This document shows positions 5,673 to 15,522 of a DNA stretch of 64,000 bases, piece after piece. The notes beneath the pieces were generated by a model, which saw only the letters and a program-made list of their open reading frames with translations, ran no database searches and was not told the origin of the DNA. Source of the stretch: Ostreococcus lucimarinus (taxonomy: Eukaryota); the NCBI GenBank assembly GCA_000092065.1, contig CP000582.1. One strand, 5' to 3'. The number at the start of each line of letters is the position of its first letter. Position 1 is the first letter of the stretch. Made by a program: the position numbers and the translations under genes.

Positions 5673-6358
5673 GGTGTGACGCGACGACGGTTCGCGACCG
5701 ATCGACGACGACGACGACGCGAAGACGACGCGCGCGAACGATTCATTTCGAGCGCCGCGTTAAAACTAACGCTAGACTACCCGCGCGACGCGACGCGACG
5801 CGACGCTCGACGACTATCGCGACGGCGCGCCGACGCGCGCTCGACGACGGCGCTCGCGCGCTCTGCGCGTCTTCGTGTGCGCCAGCGCGACGCCCTCGCC
5901 CTCGAGCCACTCGACGAACACCGCGCGACTCGCCCGCACGCCCGCGACTCGCGCGCGCGCCAGCGCGTCGTCGACGTCGACGCCGCGCGTCAGCAGCGCG
6001 CGCTCGTACGTCTCGTCGTCGGCGCGAAGCCACGCCGCGAGCGCGTTCGCGACCTCGGAATCCGTCGCCGCGCGTCGCGTCGCGCGTCGCGTCGCGCTCG
6101 ATCGCGCGTCTCCCGTCGTCGCGGCGTCGCGGCCGCGCTTTAATCGCTCGCGAAGCGGTGGAATCTCGCTCTCGGACGCGTCGTCGCCGTCGCGCCGAGC
6201 GTCGAGCGCCGAGCGCGGTCCGTCGTCGTCGTCGTCGTCGTCGTCGCTCGTCGACGCGTCGCCGCTCGCGCGTCGATCGGCGAGAATTCGAGCGAACGCC
6301 TCGCGCACGCGCGCGCCGCCCTCGCGCTCGTCCCTGCGCGCGACGCGTCGTCAGTCGT

Positions 6359-6390
6359 CGCGAACCGAACCGAACCGAACCGAACCGAAT
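6359..6390. repeat. (CGAAC)n pentanucleotide microsatellite in the divergent SDH-like / Flv intergenic region
   Basis: cgaaccgaaccgaaccgaaccgaaccgaat at 6361..6390, upstream of the Flv ATG at 6487. Confidence 0.8.
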
Positions 6391-6486
6391 CGTCGCGCGC
6401 GCGCTCGCCGCGCGCACCGATCGACGCCCATCGCGCGCAGGAGCTCGCCGACGACGTCGTCGCGCGTCGCGCCGAGCGCGCGCGCG

Positions 6487-8718
6487 ATGGCGTCGACGCG
6501 CTCCATCGCGCGCGCGTCGCGCGATGGCGACGCGCTGACGCGGACGGCACTCGACGACGCCGCGATGCGCGCCGCGACGCGCGCCGCGACGCGCGGTGAC
6601 GCGACGCGATGCGCGACGCGACGCGCGCGCGATGTCGCGCGTCGACGGCGCGCGACGGCGCGACGCGCGCTCGAGACGGGACGCGAGGAGACGCGCGCGG
6701 CGGATTCGAAGCGCGCGCGCGACGCGCTGTTCGCGGCGAACGACGGCGCGCGCGACGGCGACGACGGCGACGATCGCGTCGCGACGCGCGATGACGTCGT
6801 CGGCGGGGTGGCGATGGTGTCGTTCGCGACGCGCGCGCGACGGACGTTCGAGGTGGAGTACGGCGCGCGGCGAGGGACGACGGAGAACGCGTACGCGACG
6901 CGAGGCGAAAAGGATGCGTGCCTGATCGATTGCGTCGACGGGAGACACGCGGAGGGGTACGCGCGCGAGATCGAGGGGCTGGGGGCGTGGGCGCGCGACG
7001 CGGCGTATCACGCGGTGCTGCACGTGAGTCCGCGGCGGTTGGACGCGCTCGCGGCGGCGATCGCGAACAGGAGCGAGGGCGCGGCGTGCGTGGAGGTGCT
7101 GTGCTCGAATCCGGGGGCGCAGTTGATTCAACAGGCGCTGAAACCGAATAGTCCTCTGACGAATGAAGCGCTGTGTGCGGCGTGGAAGGGGACGGATGGG
7201 AAACTGAGGGCGCGGTTGCGCGTCGTGCGCAACGGCGAGCGGTTGGATTTGGGCGGGCGGACTTTGAGATTTACGCTCGCGCCCACGCCGCGTTGGCCGG
7301 ATTTGATCTTCGCGCGCGATGAGAAGTCGCAAACTCTGTTTACATCGAAGTTTTTCTCCGCACACGTCGGCACGATGGAAGGATACGGCGATGAGGGCGG
7401 GTTGGAGACGTTCGGGGAGGATTGGAGGTTTTACTTTGACTGCCTCCTCGCGCCGATGGCGAGGCAAGTGTCGCCTTTGCTCGAGAAGCTTACCGTGAAA
7501 GAAGAGAACGCGTACGACGAACGGATGGGACGACGGATGGAGGAGTGGGAAAAGAGCGGCGCGGTGAAAAAGGTTTTGCTGCGCGCGATGGGCAAGTCCA
7601 TGGCGGGGAAAACGAGCTCGCAAGCGTTCGAGGGCGTCGCGAAGACTATTTGCCCGGCGCACGGCCCGGTCGTCGCGTCCTCGGTCACGGAGCTGTATCG
7701 AGAGTACGTAGAGTGGTGCAAAATGCAAACTTCCGCTGGGGATAACTTGTCCGTGGCCGTCATCTACGCCAGTGCGTACGGGAACACCGGCGCGATGGCG
7801 CAAGCCATCGCGCGAGGCGTCGCCAAGACAGGCGTCGGCGCGGAAATGTTCAACTGCGAGCTCGCGTCACCGATCGAAGTGGAAGAAGTGTTGAAACGTA
7901 GCGCGGGGTTCGCCCTCGGTGCACCGACGCTCGGTGGCACTTTACCGACGCCCGTGCAGACCGCACTCGGGGCGATCGTGAAGGAGGGCGATTTGGAGAA
8001 GCCGTGCGGCTCCTTTGGATCCTTTGGCTGGTCTGGCGAAGCGGTGGCGATGATCGACAAACGCTTGACAGACGCGGGCTTTAAAAGTGCGTTCGAGCCG
8101 TTGCGGTGTAAATTCAAACCTACCGCCGAGACGCTGCAGCTTTGTGAAGAGAGCGGGACGGATCTCGCGCAAGCGGTGCGCAAGATCGAGCGCCGCAAAC
8201 AAGTGCTCGAGCGTAAATCCGTCGGCCAAGCCGCGGACGGCGTCAGTGACACCGCCGCCGCCGTCGGGCGCATCGTCGGCTCGCTATGCGCGGTGACGAC
8301 GAAGAACGAAGACACGCAAAGTGCCATGTTAGCGTCTTGGGTATCTCAAGCGAGCTTCAATCCGCCGGCGCTCACCGTCGCCGTCGCCAAGGAGCGCGCC
8401 GTCGAGAGTTTCCTCATGACCGGCGGCAAGTTCAACCTCAACGTCCTCAAGTCCGGCGGCGAAAAGGACGTCATGAAGGCCCTACTCAAACCGTTCGCTC
8501 CCGGTGAGAACCGTTTCGGCGCGCTCGACGTAGACATCTCCGAAACCAACGGCTGCGCCGTGGTGAAACAGGCCCTCGCGTGCGTCGAGTGCACCGTCAC
8601 GAAGCGAATGGAGGCCGGCGACCACTGGGTCGTCCTCGCCGAAGTCGAGCGCGGGACTCTCTTAGACGCCGAAGGCGTGACGAGCATCCACCACAGAAAG
8701 ACTGGTAGTTCTTATTAA
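6487..8718 (+). CDS. Flavodiiron protein, class C (metallo-beta-lactamase-like + flavodoxin + flavin-reductase-like domains), with a putative plastid transit peptide
   Basis: Flavodoxin core VAVIYASAYGNTGAMAQAIARG...GSFGWSGEAV. C-terminal NAD(P)H:flavin-reductase-like domain IVGSLCAVTT...HHRKTGSSY. A beta-lactamase-like N-domain lies upstream. The track ORF starts at 5875 in Arg/Ser low complexity; the first plausible ATG is 6487, followed by an R/S/T/A-rich presequence. The start is uncertain (confidence for the start about 0.5). Confidence 0.85.
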   Translation: MASTRSIARASRDGDALTRTALDDAAMRAATRAATRGDATRCATRRARDVARRRRATARRALETGREETRAADSKRARDALFAANDGARDGDDGDDRVATRDDVVGGVAMVSFATRARRTFEVEYGARRGTTENAYATRGEKDACLIDCVDGRHAEGYAREIEGLGAWARDAAYHAVLHVSPRRLDALAAAIANRSEGAACVEVLCSNPGAQLIQQALKPNSPLTNEALCAAWKGTDGKLRARLRVVRNGERLDLGGRTLRFTLAPTPRWPDLIFARDEKSQTLFTSKFFSAHVGTMEGYGDEGGLETFGEDWRFYFDCLLAPMARQVSPLLEKLTVKEENAYDERMGRRMEEWEKSGAVKKVLLRAMGKSMAGKTSSQAFEGVAKTICPAHGPVVASSVTELYREYVEWCKMQTSAGDNLSVAVIYASAYGNTGAMAQAIARGVAKTGVGAEMFNCELASPIEVEEVLKRSAGFALGAPTLGGTLPTPVQTALGAIVKEGDLEKPCGSFGSFGWSGEAVAMIDKRLTDAGFKSAFEPLRCKFKPTAETLQLCEESGTDLAQAVRKIERRKQVLERKSVGQAADGVSDTAAAVGRIVGSLCAVTTKNEDTQSAMLASWVSQASFNPPALTVAVAKERAVESFLMTGGKFNLNVLKSGGEKDVMKALLKPFAPGENRFGALDVDISETNGCAVVKQALACVECTVTKRMEAGDHWVVLAEVERGTLLDAEGVTSIHHRKTGSSY

Positions 8719-8958: not shown

Positions 8959-10743
8959 ATGGGCTTCAAAGAGCTCCTCAAAGACTCCGTCACGGAGGTC
9001 TTCACCTACCGCACCACGAAGCTCGTGAAGACGAACGATAAGTTCTTAGTGACGCTGCACTTCATATTCATGAGCCTGATCGCGACGTTCGCGCTGGTGT
9101 CGATCTTATTGAGTCATAACTACATGCTTTTCGAGCTTCCGGCGCTGTACGTGACGACGACGTATCAGAAATTCGGACCGGATCCGGTGACGAGCAACGT
9201 GGTGCTGGCGCGTGAAATCGCGCAGAATGCGACTGTGGATTATTGTAACACAGGGTACGTGAATTGGCGTCGAGGGGGGAAGGTGTTTGACGACGCTTAC
9301 ATGACGGCGCTCGAATGTACGGCGCAGCACGCGCCGGCTGAGTACGTGTGGCCGTTCGATGCGGGGAATGGGATGACCATCGGCACGTTTGCAGAAGTAC
9401 ACTCCGTGACGAGATCGTGTACATCACCGGGCGCGTCGACGTACGGGGCGGCAGGGTGTACGGAGACTCAGACGTCGCCGCAAGCGTACATGGTGGTCGG
9501 CGTAGACTTGCTGAGCATGCAGTTAGATATTCGGTACCAAACAGCCACTGGAACTCTTAACGAGGCGGAAGTCGTTGACGTAAATGGAGTAGAGTATATC
9601 ACCTCGATAACCAAGCCGACGGTCACGTTTCCGCAGTTGTTAGCCATGGCGGGGATCAACTCGCTCGACGAAACAAATCCCTCAATCGTCGGCGACCGAG
9701 GCTCCGTGACAGGGCTGCCCTATCGCATGTCGGGCCTGCGCCTGAACGTGAAGGTGTCGTTTACAAACACTTATTTTAGTAAACCGTTGAAGACGACGGT
9801 CACGGCGACTTTGTCTGCGGAACAAGTGAAGACGAATAACTTCAACGCGAAGACGACGGTGACGTATTTGCCTCACCCAACAGATGCCGGGATACATTCC
9901 ATATCGCGGTACTTCCACACGTGGGCCACGTCAACCGTCACGTTTGTGTCGTCCGGGCATATCGGCAAGTTCGACTTGTTCGCCTTGGCTCTCGCCATCA
10001 CGAACGCTTTCGTGCTAATTGGCATGGCGACGACCATCGTAGATTTTGTTGGCGTCATGTCTTCTGAAACGTTTTTAGACGACAAGTACGAAGACGACGG
10101 CGAACGTTTCGGTTTAGAAATGATGCTAGCGAACATCGAGAACGATGATCACCCGGGAGTGCCGTTCGATCCCAACGACTTGCGCTTGAAGGACGCTGCC
10201 GGCGACCCTGGCCTGAGCTACGAAAAGACACTCGAGCAGTTACTCGACGAGGTGCGGGAAATCCAAGAACAGCTCAGTCTGCTGCCGGAAGATGAAAATG
10301 AGCTTCGCGCTATCACTACTGGCCATGCTGAGGAAGAAGAGTATAGAAAGCTGCGCTTGATTTACGTCCCTGACCCGCTCTCAACTGAGGCAAACGACAA
10401 GTCCTACGTTCCTCCAGAGATTTTATTGCACGACGGTCAGCAAACGATCGGTCGTGGCATGGGGGGTATTGAAAACAAGGGCGTGAGTAGACAGCAGTTC
10501 TCAATCGCGGTCATCAAGGAAAGGATCCGCATGAAGTCTCTGCACGAAGGACCTGGGGTGTGGCGCCAGAGCTCAGGTCGTTGGGAGATGCTCCCAGTCG
10601 GCAAGGCCGCTGTCTTGAGTGTTGGCGATCGTTTGTGCTTTAGAATGCGAGAGGGTAAATTGGGGGGGCACGAAGGCGTGTTCACGCTCGATTTCCAAGA
10701 CACGCGCATGGAGTGCACGGTGTTTGGAATCCCGTTGCGTTGA
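8959..10743 (+). CDS. P2X-receptor-like ATP-gated cation channel homologue with a C-terminal FHA-like domain
   Basis: ATG confirmed at 8959. It has a P2X-like N-terminus with TM1 (FIFMSLIATFALVSILL), a Cys-containing ectodomain, and the hallmark pre-TM2 motif GKFDLFALALAITNAFVLIGMATTIVDFV (compare animal P2X GKFDIIPT...GMATV). The C-terminal roughly 110 aa (TIGRG...GVSRQQFSIAV...LSVGDRLCF) look FHA-like. Confidence 0.75.
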   Translation: MGFKELLKDSVTEVFTYRTTKLVKTNDKFLVTLHFIFMSLIATFALVSILLSHNYMLFELPALYVTTTYQKFGPDPVTSNVVLAREIAQNATVDYCNTGYVNWRRGGKVFDDAYMTALECTAQHAPAEYVWPFDAGNGMTIGTFAEVHSVTRSCTSPGASTYGAAGCTETQTSPQAYMVVGVDLLSMQLDIRYQTATGTLNEAEVVDVNGVEYITSITKPTVTFPQLLAMAGINSLDETNPSIVGDRGSVTGLPYRMSGLRLNVKVSFTNTYFSKPLKTTVTATLSAEQVKTNNFNAKTTVTYLPHPTDAGIHSISRYFHTWATSTVTFVSSGHIGKFDLFALALAITNAFVLIGMATTIVDFVGVMSSETFLDDKYEDDGERFGLEMMLANIENDDHPGVPFDPNDLRLKDAAGDPGLSYEKTLEQLLDEVREIQEQLSLLPEDENELRAITTGHAEEEEYRKLRLIYVPDPLSTEANDKSYVPPEILLHDGQQTIGRGMGGIENKGVSRQQFSIAVIKERIRMKSLHEGPGVWRQSSGRWEMLPVGKAAVLSVGDRLCFRMREGKLGGHEGVFTLDFQDTRMECTVFGIPLR

Positions 10744-11172: not shown

Positions 11173-11734
11173 TTAGTCCTCCATGTCCATCTCCATCCTT
11201 TTTCGTTCCTTCTTGCTCATCTTGACCTGTCCGCCGGTGCGTTCGAACTCTTCTCTTTCGAGGCGAGCGGCGACCTTGGCCTCCTTCGCCGCTCTGCGTT
11301 CCGCCTTCGCGCGCTGCTTCGCGCGTTCGTGTTCGCCCATGATCTCGAGCGCGCTCTTCTGGCGACTGGCCTCGTTCAACTTTTTCGTCTGGGCTTCGCC
11401 CAAGATACCCTTACCGAACGATTTAATCGTCCCGTTCTGTTCGGCGCGAATCGAGAATCATCCGAGGTCAGTCTCGCCACGTCAGCATCCGCGTCAGCAT
11501 CCGCGAATCGCCGACCCGCGCCATCGATCCCGCGCCCGCGCGCGCGCGCCCCCCCGCCCCTCCGTCCCGCGAACGATTCACAAAAAACCCACGCCGCTCA
11601 AAACGTACCGCGATGTGCTGCTGCACCTCGTACGCGTTCACCTGCTGCGACCGGTTCATGTACGCGAACACCGCCATTTGTTCATCCGCGGTGAGCCCGT
11701 GTTGATCGAGCGAGGTTTGCACGTTGACCGACAT
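11173..11734 (-). CDS. Small charged/coiled-coil protein of unknown function, two exons (exon 1 11609..11734; intron 11437..11608; exon 2 11173..11436)
   Basis: ATG at 11734. Exon 1 ends ...HIA followed by GTACGT. The intron contains GAGACTGAC 28 nt upstream of a CAG acceptor. Exon 2 joins in phase 0 to the 11173..11403 ORF and ends in a Lys/Glu/Arg-rich tail (KKERKRMEMDMED). Confidence 0.4.
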
Positions 11735-12108
11735 TTGACCGTCGAGGTTGGTTGTGTGTGAGCGAGTGTCGTGTAACGCTTAAATTTCAAGCGTCGCCGT
11801 GTCGTCGCGCGGGGCGTCGACGGGTCGTTCTGAGTTCAGTAATGCCGTCGCCGCGCGCGCGCGCGCGACCCGCGTCGAGGTGCCGAGGCGGCCCGGGGTG
11901 GCGATCGCGTTTTTATTGGTCGTCGTGCTTCCATCTAGGCGAATGGGTCGCTCGAATACGGATCGAGCGGCCTCGGACGAGACGACGGGTCCCGACTCGA
12001 CGCGATCGGGGGTCGGGGGTCGAAACGATCCGTGTGTCGCGTGCGTCTCGCACCGCGCGCGTCCGCATCGTTCGCGTCGTCCGTCGCCGCGGCGACGCGC
12101 GCCGCTCG

Positions 12109-15100
12109 ATGGCGCGCGACGCCGCGCTCGGCGTCGCCGCGGACGACGTCGACGCCGTCCGTCGTCGCGTGCTCGCGCGCGCGGCGCGCGCGGCGCGCGA
12201 GGACGACGCGAACGATGCGGACGTCGACGCGGACGTCGACGACGCGCGGCGCCTGCGCGCGAGGCTCGAGCGCGACGCCGAGGCGACGCGGGCGGAGTAC
12301 GAGGCGGTCGAGCGCGCGCTGGAGGAGTGCGACGAAGCGCGGGACGCGCTGCGCGCGGCGGTGGGGAAGAAACGGTTGGAGGGACTGCGAGGGAAGATGG
12401 AGGCGCAGGCGGCGGCGGCGCGCGCGGCGGAACGCGCGGCGCGGGCGATCGAGGACGACGGAGGGACGGCGGAGGGAGAGGGAGGCGCGAGAGGAAGGGT
12501 CGCGTCGACGACGGCGACGACGCGCGGGACGGAGGGAGACGGGCGCGCGACGAACGGGCGGGCGAGGACATCGGCGGCGCGGCCGAAGCCGGACGACGAC
12601 TTTTTCGACGAGCTCTTCGACGAGCCCGCGGCGGCGAAAGCCGCGGCGACGGAGACGGAGCGCGAGCGGTTGATCAGGATTGGAGTTTTGACGCCGTTCG
12701 ATAGGCTCGATGGATTCGAACGCGTGGTGAAGGAGAAGGAGACGGCGACTAAAGCCGCCGCGGCGACCAAGGCGTGGCGAGATTCGAGGAGTCGAGCGAA
12801 GACGTTGACCGTGGAGGAAACTCCGCGGTTAGAGCCGAACGCGCGGCCGTTTGCGAGCCGCGCGATGAGAAACGCGACGAGCGCGGCGACGAAGCAGAAG
12901 ATGGCAGCGAAGCGTGCAGAGTGGCGGGCAAAGATGCGCGAGAACGACGAAGACGCGACGGGCGTCGCAAAGCGCTCGCGGCGTAACGGATTTCACGACA
13001 GCGACGAGGACCGAGCGGCGGAAGATGACGAAGACGAAGACGAAGACGAAGATGAAGAACCATTAGAGGACGTCGAGTTTGCGGGCGGATTATCGATCCC
13101 GGGCGATACGTACGAAAGGTTGTTACCACACCAAAAGACGTGCCTGAAGTGGTTGTGGGAATTGCACTGCCAACGCGCCGGAGGCATCATTGGAGACGAG
13201 ATGGGACTCGGTAAGACGGTACAAGTGGCGTCGTTTTTAGCCGCTTTACATCATTCGCGCATGTACTCGCCCTCGATCATCGTTTGCCCGGCGACGATGT
13301 TGCGGCAGTGGCGTCGAGAGCTTCGAATCTGGGCGCCTAAATTGAAGACGACAATTTTGCACGATTCAGCCATCTCCAGCGAGGCGGGCGGGAAGAAACG
13401 CGCGCGAGAGCGATTGTTTAACGAGTGCATTTCCGACGGTGACGGAGTTTTACTCACTACATACGAGCACATGCGAATGTTTCGCGATCGAATTTGCGCC
13501 GTGCGCTGGGGATACGCCGTCTTGGACGAAGGACACAAAATTCGCAATCCAGACGCCGACGTGACCATCGTCGCCAAGCAGCTTCAAACCGTCCATCGCA
13601 TCATCATGAGCGGTGCGCCGATTCAAAACCGCCTGTCAGAACTTTGGTCATTGTTTGACTTCGTGTTCCCTGGAAAGCTGGGCACGCTTCCCGTGTTTCA
13701 AGCGCAATTCTCGGTACCGATTCAAATCGGCGGTTACACGAACGCGAGTAATCAGCAAGTCACGACGGCGTATCGCTGCGCGGTGACTCTAAAAGATCTT
13801 ATCGCGCCGTATCTACTTCGACGCATGAAATGTGACGTAGACGTAAAGTTACCGGACAAAACTGAGCAAGTTTTGTTCTGTCCGATGACTTGCGAGCAAC
13901 GAGAAGCGTACCGAGCGTACTTGGCCAGTCGCGAGGTGGAGGAAATATTAGATGGCTCGCGCGAAGCCTTGGGGGGCATCGATGTCTTGCGCAAAATCGT
14001 CAATCATCCAGACTTGCTCGAGCGTCGAACGCAAGCCGCGAACGAAGGCTACGGCGACTCTGTGCGCAGTGGTAAGCTTCAGGTGACGCTCAAGGTGCTT
14101 TCACTTTGGCGCGAGCAAGGTCACCGATGCCTCGTGTTCAGCCAGACGCAGCAGATGCTCGATATCTTGGAGAGCGCAGTGGCGTCTGCTGGGTACAATT
14201 ACCGCCGAATGGATGGAAACACGTCTATCGCTTCGCGCATGTCTCTCATCGATGACTTCAACGACGACGACAGAGGCGTGTTTGTGTTTTTGCTCACCAC
14301 CAAAGTCGGCGGTTTGGGCGTAAATCTCACCGGGGCGAATCGCGTGTTGTTGTACGATCCCGACTGGAACCCTTCTACGGATGCGCAAGCGCGCGAACGC
14401 GCGTGGCGTATTGGTCAGAAGAAAGAAGTCACGATTTATAGACTCATCACCGCGGGGACGATCGAAGAAAAGGTGTATCACAGGCAAATTTACAAGGAAT
14501 TTTTGACGAGTAAAGTGCTCAAAGATCCCAAGCAGCGACGCTTTTTCAAAGCGCGCGACATGGCTGATCTATTCACCTTTGACGAAGTCGCCGCCGGAGG
14601 CGGAGACGCGCACGATAAGGCGACGATTGAAACCGTGGAGCTGTTCTCCGAAGTCGAGGGTCAGATCTTACGCGGCGACGTCGAGGACGAAGACGAAACG
14701 AAGGCAACGTCCGAGGATGGCGAAATAGAGCGCGACGCGTGGGACCCAGACGACAACGAGGCACCGCCACCGAAATCTAGAACGCGTCCTACTCGACAAA
14801 GTAACCGAGTTCGTGTGGAAACCGCGCGCGAGACCGCGTCAACAGCGAGCGGTGACGGCGGCGCTGGCGATTCGCAAATTTTGCGCGGTTTGTTCGATTC
14901 GGGAAACATTCAAGTCGCGATGAATCACGACAAGATCATGAACGCCGCAGGTGTCGACCGTATGTCACATAATGCTGAGGCGGATCGCGTCGCGCGTCGC
15001 GCGGCCGAGGCGCTTCGCTTGTCTACGCAAACAGCTCGCGCGGGTTTGGCCGTTCATGTACCGACGTGGACGGGCAATCGCGGCGCCGTTGGTGGCGCGC

Positions 15101-15522
15101 GGACTGGGGTGTCCGCCAACACCACAGCACGCCCGCTCGGACGTTTCGGTCGCACGAGCACGGCACCCTGCGCGTTAGCTACGGACGCTCCCGCCGTGGG
15201 CTCTCGCGCACTCCTTGACCGTATAGCCGCTCGACGAGAAGAAACAGCTCGAGCAGTCGAAGCCGATTTGGACAGTGCAGAGCTCGACGAAACTCAAGCT
15301 AACGAGCTCATGCGCGACATTATCTTACTTCTCAAATCTCGAGGCGGACGAGCACCGACAAACTTCGTCATAGACGCCTTCCAGGACCGCATCCAGAGTC
15401 ACCAGCACGCGCTGTTTCGCAAACTCTTGAAGCTCGCCGCCGACTTGGAGCGCAACACCGCGAGCTCTCGCCAAGGCGCCGCCAGCGCGTGGGTGCTCAA
15501 ATCAGAGTTCATGAGCTTGTAA
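12109..15522 (+). CDS. ERCC6: SNF2-family DNA translocase, ERCC6/CSB (Rad26) orthologue, transcription-coupled repair
   Basis: Near-colinear with CSB across the ATPase core: LLPHQKTCLKWLWELHCQRAGGIIGDEMGLGKTVQ, DEGHKIRN, FSQTQQMLDIL, LTTKVGGLGVNLTGANRV, WNPSTDAQARERAWRIGQKK. The conserved C-terminal VPTWTG motif and winged-helix tail are present. The track start at 11752 is a TTG in low complexity; ATG 12109 (MARDAALG) is chosen as start, and ATG 11842 is an alternative. Confidence 0.9.
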   Translation: MARDAALGVAADDVDAVRRRVLARAARAAREDDANDADVDADVDDARRLRARLERDAEATRAEYEAVERALEECDEARDALRAAVGKKRLEGLRGKMEAQAAAARAAERAARAIEDDGGTAEGEGGARGRVASTTATTRGTEGDGRATNGRARTSAARPKPDDDFFDELFDEPAAAKAAATETERERLIRIGVLTPFDRLDGFERVVKEKETATKAAAATKAWRDSRSRAKTLTVEETPRLEPNARPFASRAMRNATSAATKQKMAAKRAEWRAKMRENDEDATGVAKRSRRNGFHDSDEDRAAEDDEDEDEDEDEEPLEDVEFAGGLSIPGDTYERLLPHQKTCLKWLWELHCQRAGGIIGDEMGLGKTVQVASFLAALHHSRMYSPSIIVCPATMLRQWRRELRIWAPKLKTTILHDSAISSEAGGKKRARERLFNECISDGDGVLLTTYEHMRMFRDRICAVRWGYAVLDEGHKIRNPDADVTIVAKQLQTVHRIIMSGAPIQNRLSELWSLFDFVFPGKLGTLPVFQAQFSVPIQIGGYTNASNQQVTTAYRCAVTLKDLIAPYLLRRMKCDVDVKLPDKTEQVLFCPMTCEQREAYRAYLASREVEEILDGSREALGGIDVLRKIVNHPDLLERRTQAANEGYGDSVRSGKLQVTLKVLSLWREQGHRCLVFSQTQQMLDILESAVASAGYNYRRMDGNTSIASRMSLIDDFNDDDRGVFVFLLTTKVGGLGVNLTGANRVLLYDPDWNPSTDAQARERAWRIGQKKEVTIYRLITAGTIEEKVYHRQIYKEFLTSKVLKDPKQRRFFKARDMADLFTFDEVAAGGGDAHDKATIETVELFSEVEGQILRGDVEDEDETKATSEDGEIERDAWDPDDNEAPPPKSRTRPTRQSNRVRVETARETASTASGDGGAGDSQILRGLFDSGNIQVAMNHDKIMNAAGVDRMSHNAEADRVARRAAEALRLSTQTARAGLAVHVPTWTGNRGAVGGARTGVSANTTARPLGRFGRTSTAPCALATDAPAVGSRALLDRIAARREETARAVEADLDSAELDETQANELMRDIILLLKSRGGRAPTNFVIDAFQDRIQSHQHALFRKLLKLAADLERNTASSRQGAASAWVLKSEFMSL

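Follow-up and report, generated by a model that had tools for sequence, protein, structure and literature searches.

P2X receptors are the textbook ATP-gated channels, with a deep evolutionary history and an ancestral function that is still unclear. Here we describe a gene on the forward strand (8959-10743) of a 64,000-nucleotide stretch of Ostreococcus lucimarinus DNA (contig CP000582.1 of assembly GCA_000092065.1; "the window"), whose product is, by predicted fold and sequence profile, a divergent homologue of the P2X superfamily that carries a forkhead-associated (FHA) domain on its cytosolic tail. Canonical P2X receptors (PF00864), such as human P2X4 (9bqh), zebrafish P2X4 and OtP2X of Ostreococcus tauri, have cytosolic termini, two transmembrane segments (TM1 and TM2) and a large beta-rich ectodomain; the window protein shares this layout, together with the YxTxK motif, the pre-TM2 GKFD, the (L/I)GMAT...D of TM2 and, as modelled, the overall fold. 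Unlike them, it falls below the Pfam threshold, has 4 conserved ectodomain cysteines instead of 10, lacks the conserved ATP-coordinating residues (K67/K69/T186/R295/K313 in human P2X4) and continues into a conserved cytosolic extension of ~230 amino acids (aa) that ends in the FHA domain. We consider it probable that the protein is a divergent P2X-superfamily channel subunit and that an ancestor of the Mamiellophyceae added the linker and the FHA domain to its cytosolic C-terminus.

Among known P2X receptors, P2X7 comes nearest in having captured a folded cytosolic domain, which in both cases equips the channel with an intracellular signalling module of its own, and we know of no other domain capture of this kind. 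The P2X7 C-tail forms a folded ballast domain that coordinates zinc and binds GDP (PMC7016195); a preliminary description of the window had taken animal P2X tails to be short and unstructured, which is not true of all of them. The P2X7 module is a ballast of jawed vertebrates, whereas the window module is an FHA beta-sandwich gained independently in green picoalgae; no similarity was seen between the P2X7 ballast tail and the window tail, which is not of the P2X7 type. APLF, aprataxin and PNKP act in DNA repair as soluble nuclear proteins and bind XRCC1/XRCC4 phosphorylated by CK2. The window FHA domain differs from theirs in being tethered to a membrane channel and in having Gly-Pro-Gly in place of a loop Asn. 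An ABC transporter of Mycobacterium tuberculosis, Rv1747 (6ccd), also has cytosolic FHA domains, but it is a bacterial, ATP-driven exporter and not a channel, its membrane domain is unrelated, and its FHA domains are N-terminal. A functional ATP-gated P2X receptor is known from O. tauri (OtP2X, 387 aa, CAL54489; PMC2397467), so the preliminary description was right that a functional prasinophyte P2X exists, but this is a different, canonical paralogue and not the orthologue of the window gene; Fountain et al. also reported four distant P2X-like open reading frames (ORFs) in O. tauri (PMC2397467). Finally, P2X-like proteins of a protist "Branch 1" occur in Dictyostelium, green algae and fungi (PMC10620158). 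The window family has in common with protist P2X-like proteins a divergent core, an R-x-x-G motif and an Arg placed four positions ahead of the pre-TM2 Gly, whereas the Branch 1 proteins and three prasinophyte sequences (P0077, P0081 and P0085) have no FHA tail, some carrying an Ig-like AIR9-type domain and others short tails.

The gene is a single ORF of 594 codons that starts with ATG and has its stop codon within 8959-10743. Its product exactly matches XP_001416101.1 of O. lucimarinus CCE9901 (OSTLU_119396; UniProt A4RTC4), whose public names are only "hypothetical" or "uncharacterized" protein; the window is thus part of the nuclear genome of a prasinophyte. The 90% cluster containing A4RTC4 holds 149 sequences.

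To place the N-terminal part of the protein, we combined hydropathy, structure prediction and profile comparison. Hydropathy identified two membrane segments and no more, aa ~31-53 (TM1; 9049-9117, forward strand as are all features of the gene) and ~340-366 (TM2). The AlphaFold2 (AF2) model, built from 28 homologues, has helices at 28-53 and 340-368 on either side of a beta-rich domain, which is the P2X topology; the ectodomain between them (aa 54-339; 9118-9975) is a P2X-type beta-rich body according to model and alignment and was predicted with a per-residue confidence (pLDDT) of 80-92. The best 50 Foldseek matches of this model in the PDB were all P2X receptors (E values of 5e-9 to 5e-7, probability 1.0), at an identity of 10-12% to the solved structures. 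Sequence profiles point the same way. The family profile matched residues 323-357 of human P2X4 in the PDB (E value of 0.006), and an exhaustive HMMER search with it across 1.84 billion representatives returned 643 proteins at E <= 1e-3, many of which span profile positions ~13-360. Seven of ten sampled matches exceed the Pfam P2X_receptor threshold, one of them at 76 bits. An outgroup alignment (A3) composed of 30 of the profile matches and human P2X4 (a sequence 100% identical to PDB 9bqh_A) aligned with the family alignment over 347 columns in hhalign (probability 100%, E value of 1.5e-45), and its hidden Markov model (HMM) matched the window ORF at an E value of 7e-55.

The recognisable P2X motifs lie at both ends of this core. 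The N-terminal cytosolic motif Y17-R-T19-T-K21 (9007-9021), found by alignment and hhalign, pairs with Y15-D-T17-P-R19 of human P2X4. The YxTxK/R motif of P2X receptors has been described before (PMC3853471). It is retained in all aligned homologues with an intact N-terminus except P0019 and P0020, whose N-terminal extensions look like mis-called starts. At the other end, the pre-TM2 G336-K-F-D339 and TM2 itself (together 9964-10056), placed by Pfam, alignment, hydropathy and hhalign, include eleven consecutive invariant residues (T348-N-A-F-V-L-I-G-M-A-T358) and an invariant D362; here G336-K-F-D339...LIGMAT358...D362 pairs with GKFD...LLGMATVLCD of human P2X4. The ectodomain is the least conserved part of the protein. 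Its only family-conserved cysteines are C96, C120, C154 and C167, against ten in the vertebrate-type disulfide set. To our knowledge that set is also absent from the Dictyostelium P2X, and it is not a defining feature of the P2X superfamily. R256-x-x-G259 (9724-9735) is invariant in the family. The R-x-x-G is common to almost all protist P2X-like sequences of the outgroup alignment and is absent from human P2X4, making R256-x-x-G259 a candidate ligand-contact or structural element of the protist branch. One subclade (P0019 and P0020) has a proline-rich, extensin-like insertion (SPPPxP) of ~45 residues in the ectodomain, at columns ~296-345 of alignment A1.

Beyond TM2 the chain continues through a cytosolic linker (aa 367-464; 10057-10350, from alignment and AF2 model) into the FHA domain (aa ~465-580; 10351-10698), which profile, model and alignment assign to the APLF/aprataxin/PNKP type (Pfam FHA_2, PF17913). 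A single-sequence search of PDB sequences matched the FHA domain of APLF (5e50 and 5w7w; E value of 0.0015), and a profile of 20 tails matched it over 72 positions at an E value of 7e-5; the APLF FHA chains were the only significant PDB-sequence matches for the tail. Modelled alone, the tail (aa 455-594) forms an all-beta sandwich with a pLDDT of 77.5 and a predicted TM-score (pTM) of 0.70, and the structures closest to it are the FHA domains of APLF, aprataxin and PNKP (5e50, 3kt9 and 1yj5). In APLF and PNKP FHA domains, phospho-threonine is contacted by the Arg of the "GR" and by the Ser-Arg in the following loop. The invariant residues of the window domain include G498-R499-G500, K507, S510-R511, Q513, G531-P-G533 and D557, of which the first four groups (through Q513) pair with G26-R27-G28, K36, S39-R40 and H42 of APLF. 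G498-R499 provides the Gly-Arg of the beta3-beta4 loop, and Q513 stands in place of the His of the Ser-x-x-His in the beta4-beta5 loop; PNKP likewise carries Gln at this position. The pattern GRG...S(R/H)xQ is retained even in the most distant FHA-bearing members. From model and alignment we regard it as certain that the tail has an FHA fold, and phosphopeptide binding by it is likely. The preliminary description, which had read the locus as a P2X-type channel homologue with a C-terminal FHA-like domain, was therefore borne out in both parts, by the Foldseek, profile and hhalign results for the channel and by the APLF matches, the tail model and the invariant phospho-threonine-contacting Arg, Ser and Arg for the tail.

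Several results count against these assignments. The Pfam model PF00864 (P2X_receptor) matched the ORF only below threshold (14.3 bits against a cut-off of 27; E value of 0.022) and only over the pre-TM2/TM2 segment (model positions 308-346); a similarly weak match occurs in 25 of the 28 homologues, with a best E value of 1.4e-4. The direct Pfam scan gave no FHA match for the window protein, while three of the 28 homologues have weak FHA_2 matches and two have weak Yop-YscD_cpl matches. Both assignments consequently needed evidence from profiles and structure: the HMM searches that the preliminary description had proposed failed with the Pfam models and succeeded with family and tail profiles, which match P2X receptors and the APLF FHA domain. 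The TM-scores of the model to P2X structures are just 0.4-0.5 (normalised on the target), the pTM of the whole model is 0.48, and the underlying multiple sequence alignment comprises only 20-28 sequences. The E values obtained with the outgroup alignment are not fully independent, because its sequences were drawn from matches to the family's own profile. In the tail, where FHA domains canonically have an Asn in the beta6-beta7 loop, the family has an invariant Gly (G531) within G531-P-G533; of the core contacts three are thus retained and one is missing, and peptide binding may be atypical because of this replacement.

We then asked whether the residues that coordinate ATP in human P2X4 have counterparts in the window protein. 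In the hhalign mapping, which is anchored by the well-aligned TM1 and TM2 and uncertain by about one residue, K67 corresponds to T68, K69 to Q70 (with K71 next to it), N184-F185-T186 to D-L-L, K190 to L, N293-F294-R295 to N294-F295-N296, and K313 to T321 (with H320 just before it). The N-F match at 294-295 is limited to the Ostreococcus clade. Column statistics over the 28 members revealed no family-wide conserved Lys in the ectodomain, and the column compositions no family-wide Lys or Arg at the ATP-coordinating positions; the sole invariant basic residue of the ectodomain is R256, which lies within an insertion relative to human P2X4. On present evidence, then, the window protein as aligned has not kept the classical ATP pocket. 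The preliminary description had called the channel ATP-gated and had itself named the absence of the ATP-binding lysines on alignment as a finding that would speak against it; because the classical ATP-coordinating residues are not conserved, we regard that label as unsupported.

It is nevertheless conceivable, if unlikely, that the protein is a genuine ATP-gated P2X receptor with a remodelled ATP pocket, in which the FHA tail couples cation flux to phospho-threonine signalling. The fold and TM2 are of the P2X type, and the tested Ostreococcus paralogue is ATP-gated although its ectodomain is poorly conserved. Many members outside Ostreococcus combine K/R68, R295 and R320, three basic residues that each coincide with a canonical phosphate-binding position or lie one residue away (Arg at 320 occurs in 21 of the 28 members), and in the window protein K71 and H320 adjoin the equivalents of K69 and K313. 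The window protein itself has T68, F295 and H320 at these places (DNA about 9160-9162, 9841-9843 and 9916-9918), which suggests, at the level of the alignment, a lineage-specific loss of an anion-binding site. Against ATP gating stand the substitutions at all five human P2X4 positions K67, K69, T186, R295 and K313, the acidic residue that many relatives have at the K69 equivalent, and the restriction of invariant ectodomain basicity to R256. In addition, intact O. tauri cells gave no sodium-dye signal in response to extracellular ATP (PMC2397467). Because of this missing ATP-evoked signal, an intracellular membrane is at least as likely a location for the protein as the plasma membrane. The P2X of Dictyostelium sits on an intracellular membrane.

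A second alternative, which we hold to be distinctly improbable, is that the FHA fold serves as structural or oligomerisation "ballast", acting only in assembly or as a gating weight and not as a phospho-threonine reader. Type III secretion proteins carry FHA-like domains that do not bind phospho-residues, P2X7 provides a precedent for a non-phospho role of a P2X tail domain, and the Gly-Pro-Gly in place of the canonical Asn, the Gln in place of the SxxH His, the failure of the Pfam FHA models and the two weak Yop-YscD_cpl matches would all fit such a role. However, the phospho-threonine-contacting Arg of GRG, the Ser-Arg and K507 (equivalent to APLF K36) are invariant across sequences of roughly 30-40% identity, and the closest structures are those of FHA domains that bind phosphopeptides.

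In the mechanism that we favour, a phosphopeptide-reading FHA domain on a P2X-superfamily channel subunit, the subunit would assemble as a trimer like every P2X receptor solved so far, each chain contributing two TM helices and a large beta-body on the extracytosolic side. Before the Mamiellophyceae radiated, the channel's C-terminus would have acquired a conserved linker of ~100 aa and an APLF/aprataxin/PNKP-type FHA domain. The protein would form an ion-conducting pore, given that no segment is more conserved than TM2 with its terminal Asp. Its gating stimulus would be something other than ATP bound at the classical site, or else ATP in a pocket that has been remodelled. The FHA domain would bind phospho-threonine either on a partner, such as a scaffold or a kinase substrate, or within the cytosolic portions of the channel itself, and through it Ser/Thr-kinase signalling could set gating, desensitisation, assembly or localisation. 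The linker has an invariant acidic juxtamembrane stretch (F372-x-D-D-K-Y-E-D-D-x-E-R383), invariant P402-F403 and YE motifs, and a helix (421-439) with heptad-like hydrophobic residues, although it is predicted to be disordered in the monomer model despite its high conservation; the helices of the three subunits could pack into a three-helix bundle below the pore. Outside the FHA domain, only two cytosolic threonines are conserved throughout the family, T19 in the YxTxK motif and T25, and for this reason an intramolecular switch is conceivable, if speculative. A specific version of it would be a phospho-switch channel of P2X fold without ATP as its ligand, whose gating or desensitisation would be set by its own FHA domain, docked within the trimer on phospho-T19 (T19-T-K-L22, of the pTxxL type) or on T25; the invariance of the phospho-threonine-binding residues would fit this. 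This is a long shot, but if true it would provide the "PKC-site" threonine of P2X receptors, long a matter of debate, with a reader domain of its own.

Loss of channel function altogether, leaving a membrane-anchored receptor or scaffold whose ectodomain only binds while the FHA domain signals, appears very improbable to us. The absence of the ATP site and the high divergence of the ectodomain from solved P2X structures would agree with such a protein, yet the pore-lining TM2 is its most conserved stretch, and eleven consecutive invariant residues together with D362 are hard to explain for a mere anchor.

Finally, we examined whether channel and tail belong together across the family. TM2, linker and FHA domain are present in all 28 aligned homologues, from 94% down to 34% identity, and shorter homologue entries lack the N-terminal part and not the tail, so the tail is conserved in every full-length homologue aligned, a point that the preliminary description had proposed to check. 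The most conserved parts are TM2, the juxtamembrane DDKYEDDGER motif, several linker motifs and the FHA loops. A 594-aa MMETSP (transcript-derived) ORF flagged "type:complete" belongs to the 90% cluster of A4RTC4, and complete-flagged transcript-derived ORFs from several strains in this cluster likewise encode the 594-aa product; because such ORFs span both parts, channel and tail are encoded together. We therefore rejected, as having next to no probability, an artefact in which two adjacent genes or an unspliced intron are read through as a fusion: the ORFs of the window were listed mechanically without calling introns and the linker is disordered in the model, but no stop interrupts the frame across 1782 nucleotides, the linker is highly conserved with its invariant DDKYEDDGER, PF and YE motifs, every full-length aligned homologue has the same architecture, and the transcript-derived ORFs are complete. 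The same facts remove the worry, raised in the preliminary description, that the extension lies beyond an unrecognised intron or belongs to a downstream gene.

The fusion is widespread among marine green picoalgae. An HMM of the tail finds FHA tails in distant members as well (P0065, P0066, P0068-P0071, P0073, P0074, P0076 and P0101), one of which, P0069, is the only gene on its 2.3-kilobase contig. The named sources of the family are Ostreococcus lucimarinus, Mantoniella beaufortii and Crustomastix stigmatica, which we take to represent Mamiellales and Dolichomastigales; the remaining members, each labelled "hypothetical", come from marine metagenome and Tara sequences. Since the fusion is shared by Ostreococcus, Mantoniella, Crustomastix and many marine metagenome lineages, it predates the radiation of the Mamiellophyceae. 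A P2X receptor is reportedly encoded by all five Bathycoccus prasinoviruses (PMC8528832). A scan of IMG/VR with only two peptide patterns from the family alignment, a weak negative, found no viral relative; the prasinovirus genes, if real, would therefore come from another P2X branch.

In the open-access literature we found no paper describing a fusion of P2X and FHA, and what is new here is a previously unannotated member of the P2X superfamily whose ligand site is non-canonical and which carries an FHA tail. The Mamiellophyceae, an ecologically important class of abundant marine picoalgae, thus keep a P2X-fold protein that has captured a cytosolic signalling domain while the classical ATP-binding residues have been lost. 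This offers a concrete and testable example of Ser/Thr-kinase signalling connected directly to the scaffold of a ligand-gated channel, and O. tauri is genetically tractable. The family also exposes a protist P2X-like radiation that comprises >600 sequence clusters, includes members with other tail domains and has largely escaped standard Pfam annotation.

Other tails were seen on related cores. The tails of P0077 (782 aa), P0081 (878 aa) and P0085 (780 aa) match IG_AIR9 (PF23197), at the place taken by the FHA domain in the window family, with 27.3, 26.8 and 15.9 bits, respectively, against a cut-off of 27.5, and the P0080 cluster (Crustomastix stigmatica) has a P2X-like core with a different long cytosolic tail. 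Judging from these sequences, P2X-like cores in these algae may often have exchanged their tail domains. The extreme C-terminus also varies within the FHA-bearing family: most of the Micromonas/Mantoniella-like homologues (P0021 and P0026-P0037) end in "...LGC", with a C-terminal Cys that may be a lipidation or anchoring signal, and the Ostreococcus clade ends in "...FGIPLR".

We saw no connection to the channel gene for either of its neighbours, a flavodoxin/flavin-reductase gene upstream and an SNF2 helicase gene downstream. The product of the downstream gene (11752-15522, forward strand) belongs to the SNF2 family of helicases: it has SNF2-rel_dom and Helicase_C domains, and its N-terminal region is rich in Arg and Asp. 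Between this helicase gene and the channel gene lies a Lys/Glu-rich ORF of 76 aa on the reverse strand (11173-11403) with no Pfam match. The upstream gene (5875-8718, forward strand) has Flavodoxin_1 and Flavin_Reduct domains, may encode a flavodiiron-type protein, and lies in a very GC-rich stretch (GC fraction of 0.69 over 4-8 kilobases).

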